Shown here piece by piece: positions 1-15,880 of a stretch of DNA of 64,000 nt. The stretch lies in UHGV virus genome UHGV-1351772; one strand, written 5' to 3'. The number at the start of each line of letters is the position of its first letter. Within the stretch, counting starts at the first letter, position 1. The DNA is from a virus. The position numbers and the translations under genes were made by a program. Under the pieces are notes generated by a model that saw only the letters and a program-made list of their open reading frames with translations, had not been told where the DNA came from and did not search any database.

Positions 1-3000
1 GTTAAGACAGGCGATAAAATGGTGTTAACCTTAACGAAAACCGATTTCGGTATCGATAAGATGGATAACACCATGCCGATCGCTAAACCGGTAACAAAAG
101 CGTTAGCGAATGTGCTGAAAAATAAAAGTGTGAAGGCGCACACGCATACCACTGCCGATTTGGATAATGTCCCGATTGGTAGCGCAACGGTGGACGGTAT
201 CTTACAACTGTGGGATGCGATTGATACCACGAATGATAAAGCCGTCACATCACGCCAAGGGTGGCTGTTCGCAAAAGAGATTAAGAGGGTCTCTGATAAA
301 CTGAATACCCTCTTGCCCGCATGGACAACGGCCGGGAGCAAATATACCAACAATTCGATATTGCCGATCTTGTCGATGGGTAATTACGAAGGTTATGGTA
401 AAAACATGGATGCGCTCCAGATGGTTATAGGGGTACAACAAGGTAAGCTTTATGCTTTAATTAGCTCTAAATCCGCCCTTCCGGGAACTGAGGGTATTTA
501 TTACGCTGTTGCTGGGTTAAAAAACGACAAAAGTCTCGGTGAAATTTACAAAACAACTTTCCGTTATAAGCCGAAAGGGTTAGAGACGAATTATCCGGGG
601 GTGGAATTAAAAGAAATTACCGTTACTGGTACCGAAGCATTTATAGCGAAGGGCAGCGACGATAATTATTATTTAGTTAAACTGAACGGTTCAATGGATT
701 ACAGCAAACATACCGATGTCAGGTTGGTAACTTTCTCAGAATTTGTTTCAGAAACAACATGGGAATTTGTGCCTAATATGTTCATGGATCGTGTGGTCAT
801 AGCCGATAACGGTGTCTATGTTTTGCGTACGATGCTAATGGCCGATCTGAAAAACAATACTCTGGTGGACTACATTAAGGATACCCCACAACCCATGTTC
901 CGTGTTGGGTTATTGCGGCTTAATAAAACCGATCGGTTTGAACAGGTTGATTTAAGGTCTACACGAAAAATCGGTAAGTGTGCCGATTTGGTTGAACCTG
1001 GCGCGTTCGATGTAGATAATCCGAATACGAAGCGCCTTGCCTACTTCACTGCGGAAGGCAAGGCGCTGTGGACAGTGAATTTACAATTAACTAGAGGGTC
1101 GTCAAGATGGATAACGCCCGTTGTTAAGGACGGTCACTTGTTAACCGTCGGCGTGTCTGGCGTTTGTCTTGGTTTTTCTTCAACGAAAGGTACCACGTTC
1201 GGGCCATGGAATGGTGCTTATCGTCTTGACCTATTAACCGGGGAGGTTGGGTTAGAGACAACTAACGTCTTCCCAATCAAAATCGATACTACAGGCTGTT
1301 ACTTAAAAGACGGAACAAAAATAGAGCTGAAATGGAAATGGGCTACTCGAAGTTCTGGCTATATGGCCGACAATAGAATCTGTGTCGGTGATATGGTTTA
1401 TTCTTGCTGCTGTTCGACAGAAAAACAACTCGCACCATCTCTCCATTACCAGAAACTCCCAGAAGGGGTTAGTTATCTGGACTATGTTAAGTTGAGTGTG
1501 GGGTATGAGGGGCAATCTACGTTTGAATATCGGATAAACCCTGTGGTGGGTTCGGTGTGGAAACCGTCTATGACCTTCCCATTGTTCTTCCCAGGAACAA
1601 ACAAAGTATGGCTTAAACATCAAAAAACGGCTTATTTCATTGAAGCCGAATATGATAAAAATACGACTTACGGTTATCCTGGATACGGTGGTTTTGGACC
1701 AACATCCCGCCGTGTTGAAAAAACAGCGAACGAATACGGCATATTGACAAATATACCGCTGGTTGTTACGCCAGACATACCGAAAGGTCTACTAGATGGG
1801 GCTTACTTTATCGGTGCTGAAAGTAAACCATGTAAAGTTGTTTACGGTACCACTACGGTGGCTAGTGATCGGTTGTCTATCGATGCGGCAGAATGGGCGA
1901 AGTTGACTAATATTGTTCAGTCCAGCCAGTTCTCTGGGGCTTCTAACGGCAACGCCTATGAGCGGATTAGCGTAGCTAAGACCAAAAAGAACAACTACAG
2001 TTTGTCCTTTTGGGTGCTTGGTCAAACGATGTCTGGTGGTCCGCTTTGTATCGCGATAGTGAGTCTTATCTATAAAGACACTGACGGGGTAAATAAGTTT
2101 GCTTTTTACTTCTTTCAGGTAAAACCGACTATAACCAACGGGGTCATAAGGTTCGTTAGTTCGGAAGCGAGAATGATGACGTTCAGGGAAAAAGTGGCCA
2201 GTAACGCCATTAATCTCTCACCCACAGCTTTTAATGGTGAACTTAAACAACGCTACGGTCAAGTTTTCCTTTATTCGCAAGACGGACAAAAGTTCAGATT
2301 CTCAATACATAACCTGGTTGGCGGGAATCTTGTAGGATCAGAGATTTCTTTTGCTTTTGGGATAAACTTGACTAAAAAAGGAGAATGGTTTACCGGCGAA
2401 ATTCATCGGGCGCGGGGCTATACGTATACGCTGAATAATACATCTGAAGTCTATATACCCGATCTCTCGGGCATCGCGCTATTGACTTGTAACTCGGAAG
2501 ATTTAAACGAGTTGTATCTCGGTGGCGAACAGTATAGAATCTCTGATTTGTTTAACAAAAAATATACTGTTATCGATAAGATTATTATTGGCGGCGTACA
2601 AACACAGAGCGGTTGGAATTTCTATCTGACGGAGGAAACCGAGTTAAGTTTTGGAAATAAAAGATATACCGTTCCAAGATGGTCCGTTGATTTAAGCGAT
2701 GAATTCCCGACTAATCACGCTAACCAGACATTCTACGTTTATGCTGAAGTGGTCGGTTCTACTGCCCAATACCGCATCGGTTTAGAGCAGTTAGCTGATA
2801 CCTCGTCGAGACTGTTTGTTGGGACAGTAACCACTGATTCGAACCGTATTACGGATATCAGTATCGATAAAGTAAAACGGTTAGGTCGTGTAAAAGAGCT
2901 GGAAAATCATGCCTCGGTTGTTGATCAGCACGATGTGGCGCAGGCGTTCGACAGGAAAACTGGTCCACTATTAACAGTGGTTAATAAACCCGTTAAAGCC

Positions 3001-3876
3001 ATTACAGCATCTGCGAGCAAGGGTGCTGGGTATGTCGATGGTCAGAAATGGAATACGTTGTCCGGGATTACAACACGTTCCAGGTTGCCGGTACAGGAAA
3101 CCTATTCAGGTTATAAAAGTATCAGCAGGGTGGCGTATGAGAACTGCGCTGACCAGTTCTGGCAGAAAGCGGTTGCTGCGAACGTTGCAGCGGCTACTGC
3201 TTCTGAGAACAAACAAGCAGCAACCGCGAACATGAAGTGGTTGGGTGCGTATACGAAACCGACTACCGGCGAGTATGCATATCTGGCATTGAGTCTGCGT
3301 GTTAAAGTACCTGGCGATCCTGGTACTACTAACCGTCGACTGAAAATCAGGCTTGCGGCCCCGACAGGTATAACTCAAGTTCGTTACGGGCTAAATCAGT
3401 CTGGTGGTACGATGACTGAACAGACAGTAACGCTAACTGCTAACAGTTACTTGGAAAAAGAACACGCGGGATTTAAGCCAGCTGAAGAAGTCCGCCTTCA
3501 TGCTACGTTTGTCATTCCAAAAAATGAATACGATAGCTACCGGACCAAATTTGGTGCTGTTCAGCTGATTGACGTTGAGACGAACACTGTCATTAAACAG
3601 ACAGATATCGACACACCGTTTATCGTGTACACCGCCACGGAGTTAGCGGCACAATCTGGTTTGGTGTATAAAGCGGTTAAGGGTCAGTTCCATCAACTCC
3701 CGGCTCAACCTGTCGTCATTGTAACCGATGGACAGACAGGGACTACGCCACCGGTGAAAACCTCGTTTGCTGACGGGACATTAACGGTCTACGTGGCAAC
3801 CACGTACGACGCGGTTAACCCAGCACAAACCCGCGATATCGATAAGCTCCAGTTCAATCTTATGTTTACATCTTAA
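1..3876 (+). CDS. large virion fibre/structural protein, 5' end probably outside the window
   Basis: Frame is open from nt 1 (no stop before the ATG at 19); >1285 aa; lies directly upstream of a coiled-coil fibre gene; no catalytic motif recognised. Confidence 0.5.
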   Translation, partial: VKTGDKMVLTLTKTDFGIDKMDNTMPIAKPVTKALANVLKNKSVKAHTHTTADLDNVPIGSATVDGILQLWDAIDTTNDKAVTSRQGWLFAKEIKRVSDKLNTLLPAWTTAGSKYTNNSILPILSMGNYEGYGKNMDALQMVIGVQQGKLYALISSKSALPGTEGIYYAVAGLKNDKSLGEIYKTTFRYKPKGLETNYPGVELKEITVTGTEAFIAKGSDDNYYLVKLNGSMDYSKHTDVRLVTFSEFVSETTWEFVPNMFMDRVVIADNGVYVLRTMLMADLKNNTLVDYIKDTPQPMFRVGLLRLNKTDRFEQVDLRSTRKIGKCADLVEPGAFDVDNPNTKRLAYFTAEGKALWTVNLQLTRGSSRWITPVVKDGHLLTVGVSGVCLGFSSTKGTTFGPWNGAYRLDLLTGEVGLETTNVFPIKIDTTGCYLKDGTKIELKWKWATRSSGYMADNRICVGDMVYSCCCSTEKQLAPSLHYQKLPEGVSYLDYVKLSVGYEGQSTFEYRINPVVGSVWKPSMTFPLFFPGTNKVWLKHQKTAYFIEAEYDKNTTYGYPGYGGFGPTSRRVEKTANEYGILTNIPLVVTPDIPKGLLDGAYFIGAESKPCKVVYGTTTVASDRLSIDAAEWAKLTNIVQSSQFSGASNGNAYERISVAKTKKNNYSLSFWVLGQTMSGGPLCIAIVSLIYKDTDGVNKFAFYFFQVKPTITNGVIRFVSSEARMMTFREKVASNAINLSPTAFNGELKQRYGQVFLYSQDGQKFRFSIHNLVGGNLVGSEISFAFGINLTKKGEWFTGEIHRARGYTYTLNNTSEVYIPDLSGIALLTCNSEDLNELYLGGEQYRISDLFNKKYTVIDKIIIGGVQTQSGWNFYLTEETELSFGNKRYTVPRWSVDLSDEFPTNHANQTFYVYAEVVGSTAQYRIGLEQLADTSSRLFVGTVTTDSNRITDISIDKVKRLGRVKELENHASVVDQHDVAQAFDRKTGPLLTVVNKPVKAITASASKGAGYVDGQKWNTLSGITTRSRLPVQETYSGYKSISRVAYENCADQFWQKAVAANVAAATASENKQAATANMKWLGAYTKPTTGEYAYLALSLRVKVPGDPGTTNRRLKIRLAAPTGITQVRYGLNQSGGTMTEQTVTLTANSYLEKEHAGFKPAEEVRLHATFVIPKNEYDSYRTKFGAVQLIDVETNTVIKQTDIDTPFIVYTATELAAQSGLVYKAVKGQFHQLPAQPVVIVTDGQTGTTPPVKTSFADGTLTVYVATTYDAVNPAQTRDIDKLQFNLMFTS

Positions 3877-3916
3877 CGCCACGGGACAAGGACGTCTCGG
3901 ATTAAGGAGAGTGGCC

Positions 3917-5116
3917 ATGGCCTCCATTGTATACCAATACCCTTTAGATTTAACGGGAAGCCTAACCTCTAACGCCGTGGAGCGTCAGATTACGTTAGGT
4001 ACAGGTAAAGTTAACCGTGCGTTTGCTTTTCCTGACGGACCGTTTTATGCTGATACGTTCCGCTTGCGGGTTGCTAACCGACCCGATGCGACGTATGAGC
4101 GCGGAACGGACTACGAGTTGATTTTTGCACACCCGGCTTACGAGAAATTGACGAAGAACCGGGAAGTGGTAATGGCGGTTGTTGTAACGAACACCGCGAT
4201 TCCGACCGATATCACGGTATCAGCGCAAGTAGTCGGGGGCCCGCAGTCGGCAAACGTGCCCGCGATAGAACAGGCGATTGCCGAGCTGAATCTCGATAAT
4301 CGAACTGTTGGCTTTAAAGACTTGCGAAATGTTCCTGATACATTTCCTTCGGCACCAACGTATAAAGACGTCGGCGATATTTACGGCTTCGAATACATTA
4401 TTACGGTGCTCGCTGGCATCAAAGATGCGATAACGGCGGGCGATGCTGTACAGCTTGAGAACATCAAAGCGATTCTCGAAAGCCTGAAAAACGATTTCCT
4501 GGACGCGCTGAACGCGCACATTAACGCCACGGGTAACGTCCACCATCTGGATATTCATCAGGTTAACGGGTTAACAGAAACGGAGATCCGTGCACTGATC
4601 CGTGATGTGCAGTCTGCTATCGATGCAACCATTACTGATATTAATGCGTTGAAGAAAGCAGACGAAGCGTTAGGAAAACGTATTGATGCTGTTGTCAAAT
4701 CTTTGGAAGCGTGGAACGACCAACTTAACATCGTTGCCCAAAACTACCAGAAGATGGCACTGGCAATGGCGAATCTAAACTCGCTAGTGTTACAGTTACA
4801 GAAAAATATCAACGATCTGAGCACCAAACTCAACCAAGCGATTCAGCGCATTGCTGCGTTAGAACAACGGGGTAATGAGTCCGATCAGAAAATTGATAAT
4901 CTGCAACAAAACCTGGATGCGCTTAAACAACAGGTTGCGAATAACACGAACGCAATCAGTCAGGCGAATCAGAACCTACAAAACCATATTGCGGCGGATA
5001 ACCCACACACAGGCTATCTCCACAAGAAATACGGTGGTGTGGTTCAGGCTCCGGTGCACGTTAACGCTAACTTGACGTCCCGTGATGACGTTCAGGCAGA
5101 AGCGGGTACGAGATAA
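3917..5116 (+). CDS. fibrous virion protein with a long C-terminal coiled coil (tail-fibre-like)
   Basis: AGGAGA RBS 6 nt before the ATG at 3917 (track start 3911 is GTG flush against the RBS); heptad-like Q/N/L-rich segment (NLQQNLDALKQQVANN...). Confidence 0.5.
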   Translation: MASIVYQYPLDLTGSLTSNAVERQITLGTGKVNRAFAFPDGPFYADTFRLRVANRPDATYERGTDYELIFAHPAYEKLTKNREVVMAVVVTNTAIPTDITVSAQVVGGPQSANVPAIEQAIAELNLDNRTVGFKDLRNVPDTFPSAPTYKDVGDIYGFEYIITVLAGIKDAITAGDAVQLENIKAILESLKNDFLDALNAHINATGNVHHLDIHQVNGLTETEIRALIRDVQSAIDATITDINALKKADEALGKRIDAVVKSLEAWNDQLNIVAQNYQKMALAMANLNSLVLQLQKNINDLSTKLNQAIQRIAALEQRGNESDQKIDNLQQNLDALKQQVANNTNAISQANQNLQNHIAADNPHTGYLHKKYGGVVQAPVHVNANLTSRDDVQAEAGTR

Positions 5117-5183
5117 CTTTATTACAGGAGGAACTATGCTTATGGGCGTAGTCCTCCATTCTTTTTTATTTTAAGGATACGTG

Positions 5184-5579
5184 ATGGCGATCAGTGTTAA
5201 AAATGTACGTGACCGAATCACCAACGTAGAGAACCAAATGGCAACTGGCCCACGTGTTGATCCGCAAGTTGCGTCGAAAGCACATAATGCCGCCGACACT
5301 TTTTCGGGTTGGACGCCAAGTCGGTTAGACTGCGGGGGGAGTTGCAGCTGGACGTGCTCAAACGGTTGTACGCATGGCTGTACGAGTTGTTCGGGCACCT
5401 GTACGTCAGTGTGTGTAGGTAGCTGCTCCTCTGCGTGCGGTAACCAGTGTACTGGATGTAGTTCAACATGTTCCGGTGGGTGTTCTGGTTGCAGTGGGAC
5501 CTGTGGGGGCGCTTGCTCGGGCCGTTGTTCTACGGGTTGTTCTGGTGCTTGCTCTGGTGGCTGTTCTGGCCCAACCTAA
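5184..5579 (+). CDS. Cys-rich precursor-like peptide 1 (leader plus about 80-aa Cys-periodic core)
   Basis: AAGGA RBS then ATG at 5184; about 50-aa Cys-free leader, then DCGGSCSWTCS followed by C-x3-C repeats of small residues (about 21 Cys). Confidence 0.6.
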   Translation: MAISVKNVRDRITNVENQMATGPRVDPQVASKAHNAADTFSGWTPSRLDCGGSCSWTCSNGCTHGCTSCSGTCTSVCVGSCSSACGNQCTGCSSTCSGGCSGCSGTCGGACSGRCSTGCSGACSGGCSGPT

Positions 5580-5589
5580 GAGGTGAAAA

Positions 5590-5988
5590 ATGGCAATTGG
5601 ATTACCTGCGCTACAAGCGCGGCTAAATAACATTGACAACACTGCATTGAAGAATACGGGTGCAGTACAAAACTATATTCGTGGGAAAGCGACGAACAAC
5701 GCAGACTTATTCGGTGGGCAAGCTCGCAACCACTATGACTGTGGTGGGAGCTGTAGCTGGACCTGTTCGAGCTGTTCTGGTGGTTGTACAGGGAACGCAT
5801 CAGGCGGCTGTGGTTCTTCCTGTTCTGCAAACTGTGTATCAGGTTGTAGTGCAGGCTGTAGTGGATGTTCGAATACCTGTTCTGGTGGGTGTTCAGGAAG
5901 CTGTACGGGGAGTTGTTCTAACTCGTGTGTAGGAAACTGTTCTGCAGGCTGCTCAGGTAGTTGTTCTGGTGGGTGTTCTGGGAGGTAA
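5590..5988 (+). CDS. Cys-rich precursor-like peptide 2 (paralog of peptide 1)
   Basis: AAGAGGTGA RBS; same architecture with conserved DCGGSCSWTCS junction and CSGx repeats. Confidence 0.6.
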   Translation: MAIGLPALQARLNNIDNTALKNTGAVQNYIRGKATNNADLFGGQARNHYDCGGSCSWTCSSCSGGCTGNASGGCGSSCSANCVSGCSAGCSGCSNTCSGGCSGSCTGSCSNSCVGNCSAGCSGSCSGGCSGR

Positions 5989-5990
5989 TT

Positions 5991-6197
5991 GTGATTAGCC
6001 TTAAGAACCTTCGTGATCGGTTAGTAACAGCGGAAGGGTATATTACGACCGCTAACGCAAACAACTATATTGCAAACCAGGGCACCGTGTCCTCAACCAA
6101 CAACCTTGCCGGTTTACCTTTAAGCCATTATAACTGTAACGGCGGATGTAGCTGGTCGTGCAGTGGTAGCTGTAGTAAAGGTGCGGGGGGAAGGTAA
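5991..6197 (+). CDS. Cys-rich precursor-like peptide 3 (short paralog, GTG start)
   Basis: GGAGGT RBS overlapping the stop of peptide 2; in-frame GTG at 5991; leader ISLKNLRDRL resembles peptide 1 leader ISVKNVRDRI; core NCNGGCSWSCSGSCS. Confidence 0.45.
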   Translation: MISLKNLRDRLVTAEGYITTANANNYIANQGTVSSTNNLAGLPLSHYNCNGGCSWSCSGSCSKGAGGR

Positions 6198-6346
6198 CTA
6201 AGCCCTCCAGTGGTAGTATGTCTATTACGCAATACCCGAGTTAATCGTACGGGTTTACTGCTGAGTTTCAAGTCACCGGTAGGCAATGGCGCGGTGGGTT
6301 CTATACCCTGAATGTCCGTTTGACCGTGAAATAAATGGAGCAATCA

Positions 6347-7234
6347 ATGAAGAATGATTTACATTTAGCGTACAAAACAATTTTCAATCATCCACTTCAC
6401 ATTTCTTCCCCTGATTCCGTACGTGCACACTTAGCAGATGAAGTTCGTCTGCTGACTCAGTTGCCGGGCGAATGGCCTAAAGTGCGCGGACGTTTCTTTA
6501 CCGATCGTAAAAACTATCGTGTAGAAAATACGTTTAAGATTCGTGATCTGACGGCAGAAAGTGTAGTGGTCTTTACCGGTGACTCCGAGTTGCGTGGTAA
6601 ACTGGTTGCGGGTAAATATTTCTTTAGTGACGGGATTTTGAATAACTCCGTAGATATGGAATTGTTCTTTACCCCATTTGAAGAAATGGGCGCAAAACCG
6701 GTTGCCCGTCGTTGGTGGTCACCGGATTACTTAGGCTCGTTCCCGTATTTCTTTACCCTGGTAACACCAGAAACGAAGAACTATTTCGATACGGAATCGT
6801 ATATCGAAATTGAAGGGTACGAAGCGTTAGGGATTAATTGCTTAGCGGATTTAATGGCGTATAGCTATAAGTTCGTGTGGGATCGTGAACGTTCCGTGTG
6901 GGTTGCCCTGACGGATGAACACGAAATCACAAAACGCATCCGTAAGCCTTGGATGCAGCATTTGATTCAAACACGTATTGGCGAGCATCCGTCAACAGAA
7001 GCGGATCTGGCAAAACTCGTTAGTTTCTTAATGACGAAAGTCACGTTAACTGACGAAGAGAAAGCAGCAGTGTCGGCGGTGTTGGACCGTAACGTAACGT
7101 TAGCGGATTTAGAACGTTTAAATGTCCGTTATAAAGACCTTAACCGTATTTTGGAAGCGTATAACTCTCCATTTTTGTTAACCCCTGGTGCTAACGTAGA
7201 CGACGATCCTTTGTTCGCCATTGATTATATTTAA
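6347..7234 (+). CDS. hypothetical protein, member of the Cys-peptide/radical-SAM operon
   Basis: GGAG RBS before the ATG at 6347 (track start 6335); co-oriented between precursors and rSAM genes; no motif recognised. Confidence 0.55.
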   Translation: MKNDLHLAYKTIFNHPLHISSPDSVRAHLADEVRLLTQLPGEWPKVRGRFFTDRKNYRVENTFKIRDLTAESVVVFTGDSELRGKLVAGKYFFSDGILNNSVDMELFFTPFEEMGAKPVARRWWSPDYLGSFPYFFTLVTPETKNYFDTESYIEIEGYEALGINCLADLMAYSYKFVWDRERSVWVALTDEHEITKRIRKPWMQHLIQTRIGEHPSTEADLAKLVSFLMTKVTLTDEEKAAVSAVLDRNVTLADLERLNVRYKDLNRILEAYNSPFLLTPGANVDDDPLFAIDYI

Positions 7235-7255
7235 AAACGACCGGAGTCACCTGCA

Positions 7256-8179
7256 ATGACAACCAATGCAGAACCAAGGTTATCGAATCGTTTATACGAT
7301 AAACCCACCGTATTGTCCGTAGTCGCTACGTCCAAGTGTAACCTGGACTGTAGCTTCTGCGGTGGAGCCTATTACATGAATCGTGAAGATTCTCCGCGAG
7401 AGTTTCAACGTGAGCGAATTTTGGAAGCGCTGGAAGCTAATCCAACCATTACCGAAATTCAGTGGACGGGTGGTGAGCCATTACTGGCAACCCGTAAAAT
7501 TGAGGCGTTTGTTGACGAATTAAAAGTGATTCGTCCAGAACTCAAACACCAGTTGTATACCAATGGCTTAAAGATGCGTAAATCGCATCTCCCGTTGCTA
7601 AAACAGTTTGACAATGTCTACGTTAGCATCGATGGGTTTAAGTCGTCTGAGCGCCCGTTTATGCGCTTTATTGACGAAGGCTGTTACGAAGCACTGGAAA
7701 CGATCTACGAGCTGGATAATGTCCAGACTTGGGGTGTCCTGACACGGGACCGTTTAGGGGATAAACGCTGGCACGAAGATATTATTCAGCTGCACAGCGC
7801 GATTTACCATTACGGTTTCCGTGCAATGACGTTACTCTTAGATGCGAAAATGCCAAAACCTTTATCGCCCGACCACGTCATGAACTTTATTTACGGCTAC
7901 TATCAGGTTCAGGACAACATTGAACGACTGAATGTAGTAAATGGTCGTGAATGCGGCTTTACAGTAAGTAAAGTGTTTGAAGAAGGGTGTAACGTTTGCA
8001 GCGAAAGTCTTTGGATTAATGCAGACGGTGGTGAGCACCAACTCCAGAATGCACCTAACGTTCTGGAATCGGGGTGTAACCAACTGGCCTTCTCTATCGG
8101 TGTAGAAGCGTACGAATATATTCGTCGCGTAGTGATGGCAGGGCGTAATAGAGGGGCGGCAAATGAGTCAAGTAAATGA
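7256..8179 (+). CDS. radical SAM enzyme (putative peptide maturase)
   Basis: C-x3-C-x2-C (CNLDCSFC) near the N-terminus, GGEPLL SAM-binding motif, extra C-terminal Cys (CGF...C-x2-C...C) suggesting a twitch/SPASM-like auxiliary cluster. Confidence 0.8.
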   Translation: MTTNAEPRLSNRLYDKPTVLSVVATSKCNLDCSFCGGAYYMNREDSPREFQRERILEALEANPTITEIQWTGGEPLLATRKIEAFVDELKVIRPELKHQLYTNGLKMRKSHLPLLKQFDNVYVSIDGFKSSERPFMRFIDEGCYEALETIYELDNVQTWGVLTRDRLGDKRWHEDIIQLHSAIYHYGFRAMTLLLDAKMPKPLSPDHVMNFIYGYYQVQDNIERLNVVNGRECGFTVSKVFEEGCNVCSESLWINADGGEHQLQNAPNVLESGCNQLAFSIGVEAYEYIRRVVMAGRNRGAANESSK

Positions 8180-9485
8180 ATTCCCTAAGCAGTTAACGTA
8201 TCAGATCGTAACCAACCTTTCGTGTAACCTGGACTGCGAATATTGTTACGAACGTAAGTACCCACGTAACAACAAAGCAGCGGATATTGTTGATTTCTTG
8301 CACGCCTGTTTTGAACGTGATAAAAACGAACCGAATGTTGAAGTTATTATCGACATTATCGGTGGTGAACCGTTCATGCAGCCTAAACTGCTGCTGGCTG
8401 CGTTCGAAACCGCTGAGCAGTTGTGCAAAGAACACAACCGTCCGTTTATGTTTAGTATCTCCACGAACGGGACCTTGTTAGATCGTCCGTTGAACCGTGA
8501 GATTGTAGAACGATGGAAAGACAAACTTTCGGTTGGGGTTTCGATTGACGGCTTACCGGAATCCCATGACCGTTATCGTATCTTCACAACGACACGCCAG
8601 GGTTCTTACGAAGCCGCTGTACGTGGCTATAACTACTTAAAAGAGGTTGGCATTGCAGAACTCGGCGTAAAGGCGACCTTTACGTTAGAAACGCTTCCGT
8701 TCTATGCTGCGGGGATGAAGTCATTAATTGACATTACTGGCGGTGGGACAATTTCTGGAAACGTAACTTTCGAAGACGTTATGCCACGTAGCATGGCGAC
8801 GTCAATCGCTTTACAGATGATGGATGTGATAGATTATTGGGTTGAGAAAGGATTACACACCAACCCACGTAATATCTTATCGCACATCATTCCAGAAGGG
8901 TTGGATTTCGATACGATTTGGGAACCGAACTGGCGTGACCAGTTACTGTATAATGACACCGTACGGTTGAACCCAGAACGTTTACGTCCGTTCTGTGGGA
9001 CGTTAACGCACATGACGTGCTTAGGATTTGACCGTAAGATCTTTGGCTGTAACCGCTTTATGTCAACGGTAACGTCGCGTTCTGCGGTGTTTGAGTTGGT
9101 AGGTCGGGAATTCGTCAGTCTGGACAACGGTAAATTGTTAGAAGAGATTCAAACGCAATATACCAACTACCCAGAGACCTGTTTAGGTTGTCCGATGAAA
9201 CACGCTTGTGGTAGCTGCGCGGCGGCTTCTTACGAGAACGGGGAAGGAACGTTAGAAGACCGTAAAGCGTATCACGCTGAACGACGTCAGTGTGGCTGGA
9301 CGACAGCGAAACTGATGGTGGCGGAATACTGGAAACAGAAGATGGGTACGACGTCAGCAAAAGCGTTCCACGACACGAGTATGTGTTATTGTCCACGCTG
9401 TGTTCGTGAACGTGCCCAAAAGGAAAAATTATTAAGAGAAGCCAAAGATGAAACCAATTCTGATCAACAATATTACGAAGCGTAG
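8163..9485 (+). CDS. radical SAM enzyme with C-terminal SPASM-type domain (putative peptide maturase)
   Basis: CNLDCEYC (C-x3-C-x2-C), GGEPF motif, C-terminal CLGCPMKHACGSC (C-x2-C-x5-C-x2-C) plus further Cys; start overlaps the stop of the preceding rSAM gene. Confidence 0.85.
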   Translation: MSQVNEFPKQLTYQIVTNLSCNLDCEYCYERKYPRNNKAADIVDFLHACFERDKNEPNVEVIIDIIGGEPFMQPKLLLAAFETAEQLCKEHNRPFMFSISTNGTLLDRPLNREIVERWKDKLSVGVSIDGLPESHDRYRIFTTTRQGSYEAAVRGYNYLKEVGIAELGVKATFTLETLPFYAAGMKSLIDITGGGTISGNVTFEDVMPRSMATSIALQMMDVIDYWVEKGLHTNPRNILSHIIPEGLDFDTIWEPNWRDQLLYNDTVRLNPERLRPFCGTLTHMTCLGFDRKIFGCNRFMSTVTSRSAVFELVGREFVSLDNGKLLEEIQTQYTNYPETCLGCPMKHACGSCAAASYENGEGTLEDRKAYHAERRQCGWTTAKLMVAEYWKQKMGTTSAKAFHDTSMCYCPRCVRERAQKEKLLREAKDETNSDQQYYEA

Positions 9486-10020
9486 AATTCGACTTCTGGA
9501 TAAGTTTCTGGAAAACAGTAAGCTATTCGGTTGCTATGTGGTGATTAACGGTGAAGATTTTACCGATGACGTAAAACGCTTGCTGATTCGTCACGGTGTG
9601 ACTGTAATCATCCCAATGTACTGCACCGAACTTACTGACCTGTCGGTCGCGGAAATTGAAAAACGTAACCCAGGGTTTGAAGAACGGGTATTGGATTTCC
9701 CACGTCACAAAATTGCGTTTCTACGCCGCTCTTTAAGCGAACCCAGCGCAGAATCTATCACTGTGTTGGCATTGTCCTTCCCCGGCATTACTATCTTCGC
9801 AACACGTAACCCGAACTCACCGATTGATGGGTTTTACGATGAGCGAGAGAAATTTAATACCGTGATTTTTCCTGAGCTAACGCCAGAAGAATGCCAGGGT
9901 ATCCGTATCGATTGGGAATCGGATTTCGACACAAGATTCCGTCATATCGATTTTGAACTGTTAATCGAATTAGGGTTGATTAAAGGAGACGATGAATGTC
10001 TGCTACTGGTGAAGGCTTAA
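9448..10020 (+). CDS. hypothetical protein (operon member)
   Basis: Long ORF whose start overlaps the rSAM-SPASM gene end; no motif recognised. Confidence 0.5.
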   Translation: MKPILINNITKRRIRLLDKFLENSKLFGCYVVINGEDFTDDVKRLLIRHGVTVIIPMYCTELTDLSVAEIEKRNPGFEERVLDFPRHKIAFLRRSLSEPSAESITVLALSFPGITIFATRNPNSPIDGFYDEREKFNTVIFPELTPEECQGIRIDWESDFDTRFRHIDFELLIELGLIKGDDECLLLVKA

Positions 10021-10667
10021 CGAAAGAAGAAATCCGTCGTCGTTATTTTGCGCACGATTTACCGATTGACCGTCATGGTAACTACATGGAGAAAATCGGT
10101 AGCGAAGATCACGGCCGTACAGGGTTTTGTGCGTTACTGCACTATAAGTTGATTGATGGGATGTCTGATCGCGAAGCATTGGAACAAATGCGTAACTACG
10201 ACATGTCTGAAATCGAAGCACGGTTTACGCTACAGAAAGCGAAAGACTTTGTTAACGACACGTTGGGGATTGACCTGGAAGAAATTCGTACAGGTTTACG
10301 TTCCACAGTGCGGTACATCTTTACCGATGTTCAGAAAATTCTAAGCGCTTTGGAATTCCGTTATCAGGATGCACGCTATGCTGAGATTCAGGTAGGTGAT
10401 TTCACTTTCCAGGCAGATGAGAAGTCACAGGTAGCACTGAGTCGTTATATCCAGTCAGAAACTGCGCCAGCGTATTGGTTAACGGCTAACAACACCCGTA
10501 TCGAACCGTTTACGTTAGAACAGTGCAAGACGTTGCTGGCAGCAATCGTTGAGCGCGATCAAAGACTACACCACGCAATGTCTGAGCAGAAAAGAGAAGT
10601 CAGAGCTTGGGCTGAAGCACGTGATTACGATTCAATTAAAGCGTTTGCGTTAGAGCAAGGGCTGTAA
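9996..10667 (+). CDS. hypothetical protein (operon member)
   Basis: AAAGGAG RBS 7 nt upstream; last gene before a bidirectional terminator. Confidence 0.55.
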   Translation: MSATGEGLTKEEIRRRYFAHDLPIDRHGNYMEKIGSEDHGRTGFCALLHYKLIDGMSDREALEQMRNYDMSEIEARFTLQKAKDFVNDTLGIDLEEIRTGLRSTVRYIFTDVQKILSALEFRYQDARYAEIQVGDFTFQADEKSQVALSRYIQSETAPAYWLTANNTRIEPFTLEQCKTLLAAIVERDQRLHHAMSEQKREVRAWAEARDYDSIKAFALEQGL

Positions 10668-10688
10668 TCGACAGCGAAAAAAAATAGT

Positions 10689-10725
10689 ATACCTACCTCC
10701 TATTACGGGAGGTAGGTATTTTTTC
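10689..10725. terminator. bidirectional rho-independent terminator between convergent genes
   Basis: Perfect 11-bp stem TACCTACCTCC / GGAGGTAGGTA flanked by an A-run upstream and a T-run downstream. Confidence 0.7.
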
Positions 10726-11256
10726 TTAGGACGTAAAACCGTCCAGCTCACCGTTGGTGGTGGCCAGGTCAATACGATTATCAACAACTTTCGGCGTAAT
10801 TACGAAAGTTGCCATTACACCCGGTTTATATCGGAGGTTCTTTTCAGTAACGGTACACGTTACCGTACGCAGAGTGACGTTATCATGTTCGTCTTTCTGG
10901 TCTTCGGTGTTGTACACAACGTCGCCTGGTGCGATAGCATCGTTCGGTTTAACTTTATTGATGTAATATTGTAACCAAGCGCGCAGTTCATTTTCTTGAA
11001 CCCAGCGAGACAGATCGTCAGTTAGTTCAATACGGCCTACAACACCCGGTTCCAGACGATCGTAATGCAGTTCGATTGCGCCTTTGAAATTCTCAGAACC
11101 CGGTAGTGCAGTCATGGTAACTTTGGTATTCTTACCTTCGCCTTCCAGCGCAGTAGGGAGACCAAAGGACACTTCTTTATCAGTTACCTGATGTGGTAGC
11201 TCAGTGTTAGCAGCATTATAAAGCGCGACCAACATCATCTGGTTAGTAGCTGCCAT
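10726..11256 (-). CDS. hypothetical protein, small-protein paralog family (member 1 of 6)
   Basis: 176 aa; shares with 11323..11853 the pattern NTK(V/I)T(M/L)TA...(S/Q)NFKG...HY.RL and the C-terminal ELDGFT. Confidence 0.6.
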   Translation of the reverse strand: MAATNQMMLVALYNAANTELPHQVTDKEVSFGLPTALEGEGKNTKVTMTALPGSENFKGAIELHYDRLEPGVVGRIELTDDLSRWVQENELRAWLQYYINKVKPNDAIAPGDVVYNTEDQKDEHDNVTLRTVTCTVTEKNLRYKPGVMATFVITPKVVDNRIDLATTNGELDGFTS

Positions 11257-11322: not shown

Positions 11323-11853
11323 TTATTCTTTAGGAGACGGTGCGGTGAAGCCATCCAGTTCACCTTCCAAACCGCTCAGTGCTACTTTCTCAGGAGCCGG
11401 AGGAGTAACTTTATACGTCGCGACAGTACCAGGCAGGAACTTCAAGTGGCCAGCCACAACCGTTACCACGTAAATGGTTTTGCCTTCTTCTTCACGGGAA
11501 ATAGTTTGCAGGTCGTTTTCACCGAACTCGTCATCGGTGTACCCTTTCTCAGCCATGGCTGCGTTAACTTTCGCCAGGATCTTCGTTGGTGAATCGAAAT
11601 CGGTAGTAGGTGCAGTTACTTCAACTTCACCAACGATGTCGCAGGAAAGACGAGTATAGTGGAATTCTTTCTCGCCTTTGAAGTTCTGGCTTTCTGCCTT
11701 GGCGGTCAGAGTAATTTTAGTGTTGCGGCCAGCTTCTCCGGTGAACTCAGCGACAGCACTAAAATTAACATCATTTACAGTCAGCTTAGAAGCAGTTTGG
11801 TTGTTTTTAGCAATTACAATCTCGATAAGCTGCTGTTGAAAAGTTTTAGCCAT
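11323..11853 (-). CDS. hypothetical protein, small-protein paralog family (member 2 of 6)
   Basis: 176 aa tandem paralog of 10726..11256. Confidence 0.6.
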   Translation of the reverse strand: MAKTFQQQLIEIVIAKNNQTASKLTVNDVNFSAVAEFTGEAGRNTKITLTAKAESQNFKGEKEFHYTRLSCDIVGEVEVTAPTTDFDSPTKILAKVNAAMAEKGYTDDEFGENDLQTISREEEGKTIYVVTVVAGHLKFLPGTVATYKVTPPAPEKVALSGLEGELDGFTAPSPKE

Positions 11854-12590: not shown

Positions 12591-13106
12591 TTAAATCTCG
12601 ACTAAGGCGCTCCAATCGATTGGTTTTTGCTTAACAACCTTCACAGTGCCACGATTTGGTGACCAGAAAGTAATGTTAGGCTGGTTACGAACGTCGATGT
12701 GTAACCAACTGATGTCACATTCAATAAAGTGAATGAACGGAAACTCGTCGGGGTTAGCAGCGATATAGTCGTGAACCTGTTTTACGGTGCTATCCAACAA
12801 CGTTGCATCAATGGCGTTACCGAATTTGTGCTGACTTCCTGAATCGGCGTAAAGCTGTAACGCACGTTGTTTATAACTACCACCCTTAGGCTTTTCTTGA
12901 TTAATAAAGAAATCTAAGGTTCTTAGTCCGCGTTGTTGTGAAGCGGTTGAGTTAATCACCATTCTACCGAAACGATTACGAATCTGTTGTAGCGAAATCA
13001 TTAACAACGGGTTCATAAACCGGATTGCAGAATCGCCGTATTTGGCAATATAAGACTGTGGTACTAACTCTCTGAGTTTAAAATTACTCGGATTTGGATG
13101 AAACAT
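12591..13106 (-). CDS. peptidase M15-like peptidoglycan hydrolase (L-Ala-D-Glu endopeptidase-type lysin)
   Basis: Zn-binding signature SQHKFGNAID (S-x-H-x-x-G-x-A-x-D) and downstream WLHID, as in M15 phage endolysins. Confidence 0.65.
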   Translation of the reverse strand: MFHPNPSNFKLRELVPQSYIAKYGDSAIRFMNPLLMISLQQIRNRFGRMVINSTASQQRGLRTLDFFINQEKPKGGSYKQRALQLYADSGSQHKFGNAIDATLLDSTVKQVHDYIAANPDEFPFIHFIECDISWLHIDVRNQPNITFWSPNRGTVKVVKQKPIDWSALVEI

Positions 13107-13758
13107 CTTCCCTCCCTGACAGAAAAGCGCGTTTGATGTTCAGGTATTTGACATTAACGGGTTGTTCTGTGGTGATATCAATACGTTCGTGGTTAGGGAT
13201 TGCAGGTTCCTTAAACTCGCGAACGAATAAATAGTTTCGATTGTAATCTAACGTACGAAACGCGTTAGTGCTGTAGGATGGTTTTGCATTAGGATCTACG
13301 TAGGCATCCCAGCCGAATTCAACAACGGCCTTATAAAATGTTTGGCAGATATAAGGCGAGATTTCCAACGACTGCATAATACGCAGGAATGTTAAGTCAG
13401 AGAACTCTTTATCGATAATACGCGAAACGTTACCACCCGGTGTCATGGGATAGCTACGCTCCGTGTTACATTTTTGATAGAGTAAGTCGTGAATACACGC
13501 AGCCGGTGCCCAAGGCCCGTCAGGATGGAAAATTCCCTGTAAGCGTTCGGGTATCGACGCTAAGTCCGTTACGAACCCTTTCGGAGCGGTTAACCACAGT
13601 TGCGTGTCAGGTAATACACCGGTTAAATAAACCGCACGGTCTAAGTGTACGTGGTCGTGATAAATCTCACGTAACGTAAACGGATAATGGTAATCCTCCG
13701 TTAATACAAACCACTTATTATCTAAACGTTTATATTGAAGCTTTTCCATTACCCACAC
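13084..13758 (-). CDS. DUF1353-like protein
   Basis: Motifs GFVTDLASIP and IHDLLY recalled as typical of DUF1353. Confidence 0.45.
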   Translation of the reverse strand: MWVMEKLQYKRLDNKWFVLTEDYHYPFTLREIYHDHVHLDRAVYLTGVLPDTQLWLTAPKGFVTDLASIPERLQGIFHPDGPWAPAACIHDLLYQKCNTERSYPMTPGGNVSRIIDKEFSDLTFLRIMQSLEISPYICQTFYKAVVEFGWDAYVDPNAKPSYSTNAFRTLDYNRNYLFVREFKEPAIPNHERIDITTEQPVNVKYLNIKRAFLSGREDVSSKSE

Positions 13759-13865: not shown

Positions 13866-14456
13866 TCATTTTACTAACCCCGCTTTCACCGCATAATCTG
13901 CCATTTCTCTGAACACGCGGCCGTACCAGCCGTAGGTGTATTTCTCGTTTCTCTTACGTTTTTCGGAGATTTCCGTGTAGTAAGTTACTTGGTGCGAGAT
14001 TAACGCAAAGATTAAAATGCTTAACCCTTTATCTTTACGGTATTTCAGATACGCGTTCAACGCGCCCAGCGTTTTAGGCCCCATTCCACCGTCAGCATCG
14101 ATGTCCGCGTAGAGTTTACCTTCGTTGTTCAACACGTTGAGAATACGCTGGAGCGATTTCACGCAGTTGGCACGACCTGCGTTAATTCCGAAATCAAACA
14201 TCCGGTCAGCCAGTAAAGGCGAGATAGCAAAAATCTCATCGAGTTTGAGTTTCTTCCACCAACCACGATCGTAAATGTCAAAAGCTTGAACACGGGTAAG
14301 GTCTTTCATTTTCCCTTTATAACCATACTCACGTGCAGTCGTTACCGTGATACCGTGGTTCGTTTCTGCACCTAAGTCGTCAGGGTCGTTGACGTACCCG
14401 CCTTCTAAATCCGTTTTGGATTCAATAATACCTTCTTTAGTCCAACGTTCAGCCAT
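13866..14456 (-). CDS. GH108-family lysozyme-like protein with C-terminal peptidoglycan-binding domain
   Basis: N-terminal EGGYVNDPDD...ETNHGIT signature (GH108-like); C-terminal region resembles PG_binding_3. Confidence 0.65.
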   Translation of the reverse strand: MAERWTKEGIIESKTDLEGGYVNDPDDLGAETNHGITVTTAREYGYKGKMKDLTRVQAFDIYDRGWWKKLKLDEIFAISPLLADRMFDFGINAGRANCVKSLQRILNVLNNEGKLYADIDADGGMGPKTLGALNAYLKYRKDKGLSILIFALISHQVTYYTEISEKRKRNEKYTYGWYGRVFREMADYAVKAGLVK

Positions 14457-14520: not shown

Positions 14521-15018
14521 TTACTTGGATTTTCGTGCACGAGTTGTACGTGCTTTAGCTGCTTTTGGCGCAGGTTCAGCATCTTCAGCAGTTTTACGTG
14601 CAACGCGCACCGTAAAACCGCCTACCCAGGTTAAACATTCAGGGCGGAAGAAAATACCGTGTTCGATTGCGCTACCGTCTAACGGTAACTCGCCGACCTG
14701 CTCTACCCACACGTCGTCTTCTGTAAGGGTTAGGCTGTACTGCTCGTTAATGACGGGCAGTAAGTCAGCGGTAGTCGTTGCAGATTCTACCAACAGCTTC
14801 GGTAATACGTTCAGGAAATATAAACCTGCGTCAATGCGGTTATACTGGAACGTTTGTTCGTTAGTGTAACCGAGATTCTTAATTGACGCAACCGTAATTT
14901 CGGTATTGTAAGTACCGGTGGTCACAACCGGATCGCCCAGCGTGACTTTGGCGGTGTCAAGCTCAGCGTCTGGGTTAGCCTTTTTAATAAGGTCGAAGAT
15001 AGTTTCTTGACTGGTCAT
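14521..15018 (-). CDS. hypothetical protein, small-protein paralog family (member 3 of 6)
   Basis: 165 aa; N-terminal (I/L)xxLI(K/N)...TxxDV pattern and ADLL..IN..Y.L block shared with 15032..15880. Confidence 0.55.
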   Translation of the reverse strand: MTSQETIFDLIKKANPDAELDTAKVTLGDPVVTTGTYNTEITVASIKNLGYTNEQTFQYNRIDAGLYFLNVLPKLLVESATTTADLLPVINEQYSLTLTEDDVWVEQVGELPLDGSAIEHGIFFRPECLTWVGGFTVRVARKTAEDAEPAPKAAKARTTRARKSK

Positions 15019-15031
15019 TACTGTAATCCTC

Positions 15032-15880
15032 TTAATCTAAGAATCCCGGTAAGACCGAATTAGTTTTAGCTAATTCAATCTTCGACTTTGGACGATCGGT
15101 ACCGTTAAAATGGATTAACAGATTACCGGTCAGGTTAGAACACAACGGGCTGAGCGTCAGCACCAACACACGTGTGAACTTCGTATTTGCGCCTTCGAAA
15201 CCTGCGGTAGGACCATCGTAGATAACCTTAGCACCGTACAGGTTATTAGCAGCGTTCTTAGGTACACTTACCCATTTCTCGTCAACGACGTTATCCAGCT
15301 TAGTAGCTAACTCAGCCAGGTCGACGGTGTCGTTAATGGTAATCGGATCGAGGTAATCTTTTTCTGCGGTGAAGTCAATTGGGTAAGAATAAACTGCAGC
15401 GTTACCTTTCTTAGTGGACGGATACTCTACCAGGTTTTCTAATTGAGTAACAGGTAACAATTTAGCCAGATCAATAGGGTCGCGTAGCGTGAGTGTCACC
15501 TCGCCACACCATTCGTAGGATTTCTCGTTAGCGGTAAGCTGATGGGTTTCACCTTCAACTTTCGCATCAATGATATCCGACGGCAGAATATTTAAATCGT
15601 ATTTTGCGTTGATTGCATTAAGCAAATCTGCAGCGGTTACAACACCGTCGTTACCGAATACCAACTCACCTGTTAGGTATTCGGGCAAATTACGACGATG
15701 ATAAGTCACAGTTAAAGTAGTAGACTCATCGCCTTTGAGTTTAGAAGTCAGAACCACCTGGGTATCAACCCCAGTACCAGTAGGTTCGCCGATATCAACA
15801 TCACTGAAGGTCAATGGCGGAACAATATTGTTTTCAGTGTTGATGAGTTTTAGCAGTTTCTGTTTTGACGTAAGAGACAT
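15032..15880 (-). CDS. hypothetical protein, small-protein paralog family (member 4 of 6, extended)
   Basis: 282 aa; LTFSDVDIG and AADLLNAINAKYDL blocks. Confidence 0.55.
   Translation of the reverse strand: MSLTSKQKLLKLINTENNIVPPLTFSDVDIGEPTGTGVDTQVVLTSKLKGDESTTLTVTYHRRNLPEYLTGELVFGNDGVVTAADLLNAINAKYDLNILPSDIIDAKVEGETHQLTANEKSYEWCGEVTLTLRDPIDLAKLLPVTQLENLVEYPSTKKGNAAVYSYPIDFTAEKDYLDPITINDTVDLAELATKLDNVVDEKWVSVPKNAANNLYGAKVIYDGPTAGFEGANTKFTRVLVLTLSPLCSNLTGNLLIHFNGTDRPKSKIELAKTNSVLPGFLD

Follow-up and report, generated by a model that had tools for sequence, protein, structure and literature searches.

Why should a bacteriophage carry two different radical S-adenosylmethionine (SAM) enzymes side by side, in one operon with genes for its virion fibre and baseplate? 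The question is raised by the virus genome UHGV-1351772, of which a stretch of 64,000 nucleotides was analysed (the window). Positions 7256-9485 of the window encode two such enzymes, here called rSAM1 and rSAM2, and they are preceded by three genes for cysteine-rich proteins (pepA, pepB and pepC) and a further conserved gene, orf299. A preliminary description of this segment, made from the letters alone, had proposed that the two enzymes form two types of crosslink or are specialised for long and short precursors. The explanation that we prefer, with a probability of roughly 0.6, is that the cassette matures cysteine-rich tail-fibre tips and that rSAM1 and rSAM2 act together on the same substrates. 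This region of the window has ~72% nucleotide identity to SPN3US-type jumbo phages (Seoulvirus and relatives), which infect Salmonella, E. coli, Erwinia, Cronobacter and Proteus; gp numbers below are those of SPN3US. The features of the cassette are as follows.

5184..5579, + strand: pepA, 131 amino acids (aa), an N-terminal region of ~50 aa and then a CXXX repeat with 21 cysteines; phrog_6085; proposed substrate and fibre tip
5590..5988, + strand: pepB, a 132-aa paralogue with 20 cysteines; phrog_6085, and a weak match to TIGR04114 ('Cys-rich repeat')
5991..6197, + strand: pepC, a short paralogue of 68 aa with 5 cysteines; GTG start after GGGAGG; phrog_6085
6347..7234, + strand: orf299 (gp165 homologue), a conserved accessory protein; its start is conserved at Met5 of the open reading frame (ORF) at 6335
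7256..8179, + strand: rSAM1 (gp164 homologue), a short radical-SAM enzyme of 307 aa with a C-terminal three-cysteine, twitch-like element (C245, C248, C274)
8163..9485, + strand: rSAM2 (gp163 homologue), a radical-SAM/SPASM enzyme of 440 aa from the PapB/TIGR04115/CteB clade, without an N-terminal recognition domain

Two distinct radical-SAM enzymes

The coordinates, lengths and CNLDC(S/E)(F/Y)C and GGEP motifs given in the preliminary description proved exact, and the two ORFs, which share an overlap of 17 nt, are real, distinct genes rather than chance ORFs. In rSAM1 the sequence CNLDCSFC occupies residues 28-35, with C28, C32 and C35 forming the CX3CX2C motif, and GGEP follows at 72-75; the remaining cysteines are at 143, 233, 245, 248 and 274. 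rSAM2 has CNLDCEYC at 21-28 (C21, C25 and C28) and GGEP at 67-70. Both proteins exceed the gathering score of 29.5 for the Pfam Radical_SAM model (PF04055), rSAM1 with 53 bits and rSAM2 with 57. That the pair are non-identical enzymes was also borne out. BLASTP aligned them at 25% identity over ~150 N-terminal residues only, and in an hhalign comparison of the two family profiles only the core aligned (rSAM1 residues 13-205), which rules out a near-identical duplication.

The claim that a full SPASM signature is confined to the second enzyme holds as well. This signature consists of seven or eight cysteines, arranged as C-x9-15-G-x4-C, a gap, C-x2-C-x5-C-x3-C, a gap and a final C. rSAM2 fits it with C278 upstream, C286-x8-G295-C296, C340-x2-C343-x5-C349-x2-C352 and C377, the spacings being slightly off canonical. 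In an alignment of 38 sequences six of these cysteines were invariant and two were conserved in more than 90%, while the SAM-binding residues (G67, G68 and E69, N102/T104, S127/D129) and the CX3CX2C motif were invariant throughout. The Pfam SPASM model PF13186 gave no match to rSAM2 at E<=0.01; the assignment is made because of the cysteine motif, its conservation in the 38 homologues and near-full-length alignment with TIGR04115 and CteB.

The best NCBIfam match of rSAM2 was the PapB family (NF047865), with 116.8 bits against a curated cut-off of 340. It was followed by TIGR04115 with 114.7 bits (cut-off 350), residues 10-371 aligning with positions 3-345 of the 359-position model; phage relatives of rSAM2 in two prophages described below (L083 and L084) scored 155 and 144 bits with this model. 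The closest solved relative was CteB (E 2e-36, aligned to chain residues 104-429). The first ~100 residues of CteB, which reportedly form a peptide-recognition (RRE) domain, are without counterpart in rSAM2. The core motif of rSAM2 begins at residue 21 and that of rSAM1 at residue 28, so that an RRE (PqqD-like) N-terminal domain of ~80-100 aa ahead of the core is absent in both. On this evidence rSAM2 is classed by sequence as a SPASM enzyme of the PapB/CteB/TIGR04115 thioether-type clade without a substrate-recognition domain. The phage enzymes are not filed as members of PapB, TIGR04115 or HxsB/HxsC, whose curated cut-offs their sequences fail to reach.

An additional CxCxxC motif is found in rSAM2 at 408-413. 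Jumbo-phage members of the family carry this C-terminal motif, often together with an acidic tail ending in QYYEA or QFYEA (residues 408-440 in rSAM2); prophage and bacterial relatives have neither. This end of the protein could bind a further metal or serve in docking.

Instead of a SPASM signature rSAM1 retains three C-terminal cysteines. C143 and C233 are not conserved; the conserved ones are C245 (or a neighbouring position), C248 and C274. In an AlphaFold model (pLDDT 89) they flank two strands (251-254 and 260-262) and a helix (275-281), with the strands between C248 and C274 and the helix after C274. rSAM1 may resemble twitch-domain enzymes (SkfB, BtrN, MoaA) in its short post-core beta-hairpin and helix flanked by conserved cysteines, and differs from them in having only three, in the pattern C-x(1,2)-C...GC, at which a cluster may be bound. 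Its score with the N_Twi_rSAM model was 37.7 bits (cut-off 170).

CX3CX2C, G72, G73 and E74, T102 and N103 (TNG) and S124/D126 (S.DG) were invariant in the 24 close homologues of rSAM1, which diverge to ~38% identity at the lowest. More distant relatives match as a profile only. When very distant ones were included, the 33-member alignment still conserved CX3CX2C, GGEPLL, TNG and the C-terminal C-x(1,2)-C...GC. Such conservation in close and distant homologues speaks against a pseudo-enzyme, and rSAM1 has the look of a working radical-SAM enzyme whose three-cysteine site is twitch-like; to judge from their motifs, both enzymes are probably active. It might nevertheless be supposed that rSAM1 is a non-catalytic partner of rSAM2, whether as pseudo-enzyme, scaffold or chaperone, since it has no full SPASM domain and a natural fusion of the two enzymes (P0109, see below) lacks the C-terminal cysteine motif. 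A scaffold, however, would not need the catalytic motifs that widely divergent members have kept (CX3CX2C, GGE, TNG and S.DG), and the fusion retains CX3CX2C and GGEP. We therefore consider such a role very unlikely.

The 'maturase' label of the preliminary description seems reasonable for both proteins, in view of the family matches of rSAM2 and the fold matches of rSAM1. The top fold matches of rSAM1 were CteB, SkfB (second), SuiB and anSME, with viperins after them; anSME also belongs to the nearest solved relatives of rSAM2. The occurrence of viperins, together with weak matches of the N-terminal core to MoaA (44 bits), prokaryotic viperin (39 bits) and QueE (35 bits), all far below cut-off, might suggest that rSAM1 is a small-molecule or nucleotide enzyme that adjoins rSAM2 by chance. 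Yet these matches span the shared radical-SAM core only, the best whole-fold matches (CteB, SkfB, SuiB, anSME) are peptide-modifying enzymes, and six unrelated types of phage have rSAM1 homologues beside rSAM2 homologues and cysteine-rich fibre genes, the two enzymes being joined in one polypeptide in P0109. A chance neighbour of this kind is hardly credible.

Word-indexed searches found 41 homologues each for rSAM1 and orf299; in both families those on long contigs sit in contigs of jumbo-phage size. rSAM2 had many more (812 at E<=0.001). Copies 100% identical to rSAM1 were present in a Salmonella assembly and an IMG/VR contig of 225 kb. The rSAM1 profile also matched proteins of 600-1300+ aa, such as the 1287-aa P0215, in which radical-SAM-like stretches are repeated two to four times in tandem; they are apparently unrelated to the phage cassette.

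Cysteine-rich proteins and a conserved cassette

In codon alignments of pepA and pepB from 20 phages, third positions differed two to three times as often as first and second positions. All cysteines (21/21 in pepA, 20/20 in pepB) were invariant in the same phages, although every one of these columns mixed TGT and TGC. Because of this bias and the invariant cysteines, pepA and pepB are regarded as real genes. Their repeat unit is C-(S/T)-G-(S/G/T), with a cysteine-cysteine spacing of three residues in 82% of cases and two in 18%. pepB scored 20.4 bits with TIGR04114, just above the cut-off of 20, and the gene context is of the TIGR04115 type, in which a target with cysteine at every fourth residue (here pepA and pepB) adjoins the enzyme. 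pepC carries the same leader and CSWSC motif as its paralogues.

These genes have been overlooked in the model phage. In SPN3US (NC_027402) the three cysteine-rich genes, at 6950-7342, 7353-7757 and 7773-7979 of the locus, are unannotated in RefSeq and GenBank, and the annotated 'gp166' (7426-7761) is an out-of-frame ORF overlapping pepB. At the same place Erwinia phage pEa_SNUABM_29 has several short annotated ORFs, two of them on the opposite strand and one at the position of pepC.

In all 21 SPN3US-type jumbo-phage loci pepA, pepB, orf299, rSAM1 and rSAM2 occur in the same order; pepC was found in 15 of the 21 and is absent from L096-L101. Seven of the more distant rSAM2 homologues were traced to their loci. 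Six of these loci, with rSAM2 homologues of ~33-40% identity, contain the same four-part set, namely a CXXX tip, a protein of ~250-300 aa, a short radical-SAM enzyme and a SPASM enzyme:

L083, prophage of Deferribacter abyssi, following a GpJ-type tail protein: a 302-aa protein ending in 29 cysteines; 250-aa orf299-like; 263-aa rSAM1-like; 385-aa rSAM2-like
L084, Campylobacter pinnipediorum P2-type prophage: a 384-aa Phage_tail_fib protein with a terminal CXXX repeat; 250-aa orf299-like; 284-aa rSAM1-like; 400-aa rSAM2-like; order of the enzymes swapped
L125, GpJ-type tail module: a 258-aa CXXX-tipped protein; 288-aa orf299-like; 274-aa rSAM1-like and a further radical-SAM protein; 377-aa rSAM2-like
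L126, phage contig of ~170 kb: a separate 116-aa cysteine-rich ORF; 216-aa orf299-like; 318-aa rSAM1-like; 389-aa rSAM2-like
L127, preceded by a protein of 577 aa that weakly matches a T7 tail fibre: a separate 76-aa CXXX ORF; 291-aa orf299-like; 293-aa rSAM1-like; 426-aa rSAM2-like
L128, 8-kb metagenome contig: a 406-aa fibre-like CXXX-tipped protein; 238-aa orf299-like; rSAM1 and rSAM2 fused (P0109)

The short enzymes of L083 and L084 matched the rSAM1 profile over its full length, including the cysteine motif (hhalign 98.9% and 98.5%), and the 250-aa protein of L083 matched orf299 (hhalign 97.5%). The rSAM1-like gene of L127 (5123-6004) had not been called by the gene caller and was recovered by six-frame translation with the rSAM1 profile (56 bits). 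P0109 is a natural rSAM1-rSAM2 fusion of 668 aa that adjoins a single CXXX-tipped fibre gene and an orf299-like gene. The third radical-SAM gene of L125, at 5087-5992, is divergent.

It was suggested in the preliminary description that the enzymes might divide the precursors between them, one serving the long pepA and pepB and the other the short pepC. The window, with two long precursors, one short one and two different enzymes, would suit this arrangement. It is not what the other loci show. The six jumbo phages without pepC keep both enzymes, L083, L084, L125 and L128 combine both enzyme types with a single cysteine-rich substrate (as one fused protein in the last), and in two IMG/VR jumbo phages a third radical-SAM gene has appeared without any extra class of precursor. 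In these two (L087, 4483-5394; L088, 4482-5393) an additional 303-aa paralogue of rSAM1 lies between pepA and pepB, so that the cassette has three radical-SAM genes; their rSAM1 is ~80% identical to that of the window. A division by precursor length is thus most improbable, and that part of the earlier proposal is given up. Because the pair persists with one substrate, without pepC and as a single fused protein, we favour joint action of both enzymes. The other part of the earlier proposal, two crosslink types, is possible in the form of two chemistries on one substrate.

What the substrates are is suggested by the same loci. In L083, L084, L125 and L128 the cysteine repeat is the C-terminus of a protein of 258-406 aa, and in L084 this protein carries the Phage_tail_fib domain (PF12571). 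A motif immediately before the repeat, NAD.(L/F)(G/A)G.....Y.C..CSW(T/S)C, is common to pepA, pepB, pepC and the fibres of L083 and L125; in a small database the pepB junction motif matched the fibre proteins of L083 (302 aa; E 3e-7) and L125 (258 aa; E 5e-6). As this segment is shared, the small jumbo-phage proteins look like a detached fibre-tip module, and from their sequences pepA, pepB and pepC look like tail-fibre tip proteins rather than free peptides.

The alternative is that they are leader-core precursors of a released RiPP (ribosomally synthesised and post-translationally modified peptide), for example a bacteriocin, a signalling peptide or an anti-defence factor, and are not virion parts. 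An N-terminus of ~50 aa and a cysteine-rich core beside a radical-SAM/SPASM enzyme is indeed the classic layout of sactipeptides and ranthipeptides, and bacterial TIGR04115 systems have free-standing cysteine-rich proteins. Genes for a peptidase, a transporter or immunity, however, are missing from the operon; nor is the N-terminus a signal peptide, and the glycine pair ahead of the core is not conserved. A double-glycine leader was rejected for the latter reason and because neither a C39 peptidase nor an ABC transporter is present. Moreover, the repeat ends a tail-module protein in four unrelated phages, the segment before it is homologous between the small proteins and two of those fibres, and the pep genes share their operon with virion fibre and baseplate genes. 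A released peptide is accordingly judged improbable, though less so than the alternatives considered so far.

The matches listed by a contig scan with the rSAM2 profile were mostly remote SPASM enzymes. Among those listed, more distant bacterial relatives of rSAM2 adjoin CXXX-repeat proteins of up to 662 aa with 112 cysteines, without rSAM1 or orf299, and one of them (in L007) is a bona fide TIGR04115 member with 383 bits. In Margulisiibacteriota/Termititenax (L003-L005) CXXX-repeat proteins of 661-667 aa with 112-122 cysteines, far above the typical size of a RiPP precursor, lie beside relatives of rSAM2.

Proposed maturation of the fibre tips

How could two enzymes be needed for one fibre tip? 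We infer that pepA, pepB and pepC, each with a short fibre-type N-terminal segment followed by the cysteine repeat, are the substrates and are located in the virion. rSAM2 would abstract hydrogen from backbone or side-chain carbons and join the periodic cysteine thiols to them, so that the repeat would become a ladder of small thioether rings, forming a stiff, protease- and redox-resistant tip. By analogy with the nearest enzyme families the cross-links are probably thioethers. rSAM1 would be an obligate partner on the same substrate and perform a second radical step, e.g. a second type of link or an epimerisation. Because rSAM2 has no RRE domain, orf299, a protein with no known fold, is proposed to present or scaffold the substrate.

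A rival account accepts the fibre tip and disputes the chemistry: the cysteine repeat would be a metal-binding or disulfide-linked needle and the radical-SAM enzymes would do something else, such as anSME-like oxidation of cysteine to formylglycine, or epimerisation. Metal-binding HxH repeats occur in the fibre needles of other phages, the strict periodicity of the cysteines would suit metal ligation in a trimer, and anSME is, as stated above, one of the nearest solved relatives of both enzymes. By score, on the other hand, the nearest families are thioether formers (PapB, CteB, the SCIFF maturase) and not anSME. We think this account improbable, on a par with the released peptide. It would alter the chemistry and not the architecture of the cassette, and it differs from maturation by thioether formation only in the product.

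Several points weigh against the proposed maturation of fibre tips. The cysteine-rich repeat could be a metal-binding or disulfide structure. rSAM2 scores far below what PapB (117 bits, cut-off 340) and TIGR04115 (115 bits, cut-off 350) demand, so its chemistry is not confidently transferable from these families. The auxiliary-cluster role of the three rSAM1 cysteines is read from their position in the sequence only; their spacing varies in a few members and the N-terminal domain of the fused P0109 lacks them. The match of the 250-aa Campylobacter protein of L084 to orf299 is weak (20%). Nor is the four-part set universal: in the seventh distant locus, L129, two SPASM-type enzymes stand without an rSAM1. 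Finally, pepA, pepB and pepC have not been reported from SPN3US virions; this is uninformative, because a proteomics search based on the deposited annotation would have lacked them.

In L129 (824-7251) the two rSAM2 homologues are 392 and 416 aa long; neither rSAM1 nor orf299 is present, and a 522-aa protein ends in CSDCSDCSDYCSDDHC.

A broader generalisation can be put forward more tentatively, at somewhat less than even confidence: many unrelated tailed phages (jumbo phiKZ-like phages, P2-like myoviruses, GpJ-type siphoviruses and others) would use a pair of radical-SAM enzymes and a protein of novel fold to make RiPP-type, probably thioether, cross-links in their fibre tips. To our knowledge, radical-SAM chemistry of this sort has so far been met only in small secreted peptides.

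Operon, known systems and neighbouring genes

The cassette is embedded among tail genes. The flanking features are:

19..3876, + strand: gp168 homologue, 1285 aa from the C-terminal end of a giant baseplate/tail-fibre protein; phrog_7449 over its full length; synteny with SPN3US_0168
3911..5116, + strand: gp167 homologue, a coiled-coil structural protein of the virion with 401 aa; matches to phrog_2163 ('virion structural protein', E 4e-103) and of coiled-coil type
9448..10020, + strand: orf190 (gp162 homologue), overlapping the end of rSAM2; phrog_7988 only; synteny with SPN3US and the Erwinia phage
9996..10667, + strand: DUF4376 protein (gp161 homologue); PF14301 (E 5e-11), with weak tail-fibre matches to phrog_8169 and phrog_1807
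10689..10719, both strands: bidirectional intrinsic terminator with a 13-bp stem and T-run, ending the + strand operon

The 5' end of the gp168-homologue gene presumably lies upstream of the window, and its ORF was taken to open at the earliest ATG close to the start of the window. All genes from there to 10667 are on the + strand, and the hairpin at 10689-10719 is the sole terminator-like site on that strand within 3800-10800. No attenuator or terminator was found between pepC and orf299, where the 146-nt spacer folds like shuffled sequence (z = -0.08). By sequence, then, pepA, pepB, pepC, orf299 and the two enzymes are predicted to share one + strand transcription unit with the homologues of gp168 and gp167. 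SPN3US gp167 bears the annotation 'putative virion structural protein 20'. Within the virion gp168 belongs to the tail; it resembles phiKZ gp131 and is a baseplate/fibre candidate; gp168-170 were identified as baseplate/tail-fibre candidates by mass spectrometry and are missing from a tailless mutant (PMC5105663; PMC5694885). orf190 and the DUF4376 protein are uncertain members of the system; a DUF4376 protein likewise follows the radical-SAM pair in L126.

gp163 and gp164 of SPN3US have been annotated since deposition as 'putative radical SAM superfamily' proteins 1 and 2. rSAM2 has 81.5% protein identity to its counterpart and rSAM1 ~68% in this clade, in the same gene order. In the searchable SPN3US papers and one supplement, mention of them was confined to their names in tables of annotation and core genes, and no description of the cassette was found in the searchable open-access literature; work in subscription journals may exist.

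Three known systems invite comparison. The first is the CXXX-repeat system of TIGR04114/TIGR04115, families defined in silico, in which a protein with cysteine at every fourth residue likewise stands beside a SPASM enzyme. The phage cassettes add a short radical-SAM enzyme and a protein of ~250-300 aa, both absent from the bacterial loci examined; the phage targets would be tail-fibre tips, and rSAM2 reaches 115 bits where membership requires 350. PapB, the maturase of the ranthipeptide freyrasin, and CteB, the SCIFF maturase, are thioether-forming radical-SAM/SPASM enzymes that also act on repeated cysteine motifs. The substrates of PapB carry CX3D repeats, whereas the acceptors in the phage proteins would be Ser, Thr or Gly instead of Asp, and the phage substrates would be structural proteins of 68-400 aa rather than short secreted peptides.

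The closest parallel for the pairing of two enzymes is the His-Xaa-Ser system, which comprises a repeat peptide (HxsA), a SPASM enzyme (HxsB), a short radical-SAM enzyme (HxsC) and a small accessory protein (HxsD). HxsC was the top match of the short enzyme of L083 (49 bits). With the window proteins, HxsB ranked among the top matches of rSAM2 (75 bits, cut-off 370) and HxsC among those of rSAM1 (39 bits, cut-off 268), far below the thresholds for membership, and the phage repeat is cysteine-based and stands in a phage tail context. The CXXX target with its SPASM maturase is already known as in silico families, and the paired-enzyme logic from His-Xaa-Ser. What seems to be new is a second enzyme that is obligate, an accessory protein whose fold is novel, and tail-fibre-tip targets across unrelated phage lineages.

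If fibre tips are indeed matured in this way, it would be, as far as literature was found, the first case in which a structural or receptor-binding protein of a virion is modified post-translationally by radical-SAM enzymes, and the products would constitute a new class of very large 'ranthipeptide-like' molecules. The radical-SAM chemistry of RiPPs and the adsorption machinery of phages, so far separate fields, would then meet. The 'orphan' radical-SAM genes in the tail modules of the jumbo-phage clade and of scattered prophages would be accounted for, and three unannotated or misannotated genes would be revealed in the model phage SPN3US. A cross-linked, resistant receptor-binding tip would bear on host range, on the engineering of rigid peptide scaffolds and on particle stability in phage therapy against Salmonella, E. 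coli and Erwinia. The amber genetics of SPN3US would make the cassette a tractable case for asking why repeat-peptide systems need two radical-SAM enzymes, as with His-Xaa-Ser.

Some further genes of the window may be mentioned. Two adjacent paralogues of 176 aa, both ending in GELDGFT, are encoded on the - strand at 10726-11256 and 11323-11853, convergent to the fibre operon. By eye, the N-termini of two proteins of 165 and 282 aa (14521-15018 and 15032-15880, both - strand) resemble them. A set of adsorption and lysis genes lies at 13084-13758, 13866-14456 and 28338-32897, all on the - strand. It includes a match to phrog_1158 'tail assembly chaperone' (DUF1353-like by eye), an endolysin and a long tail fibre of 1519 aa with a T4-like distal-subunit C-terminus. 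A DUF1353 gene follows the radical-SAM pair in the Campylobacter prophage.

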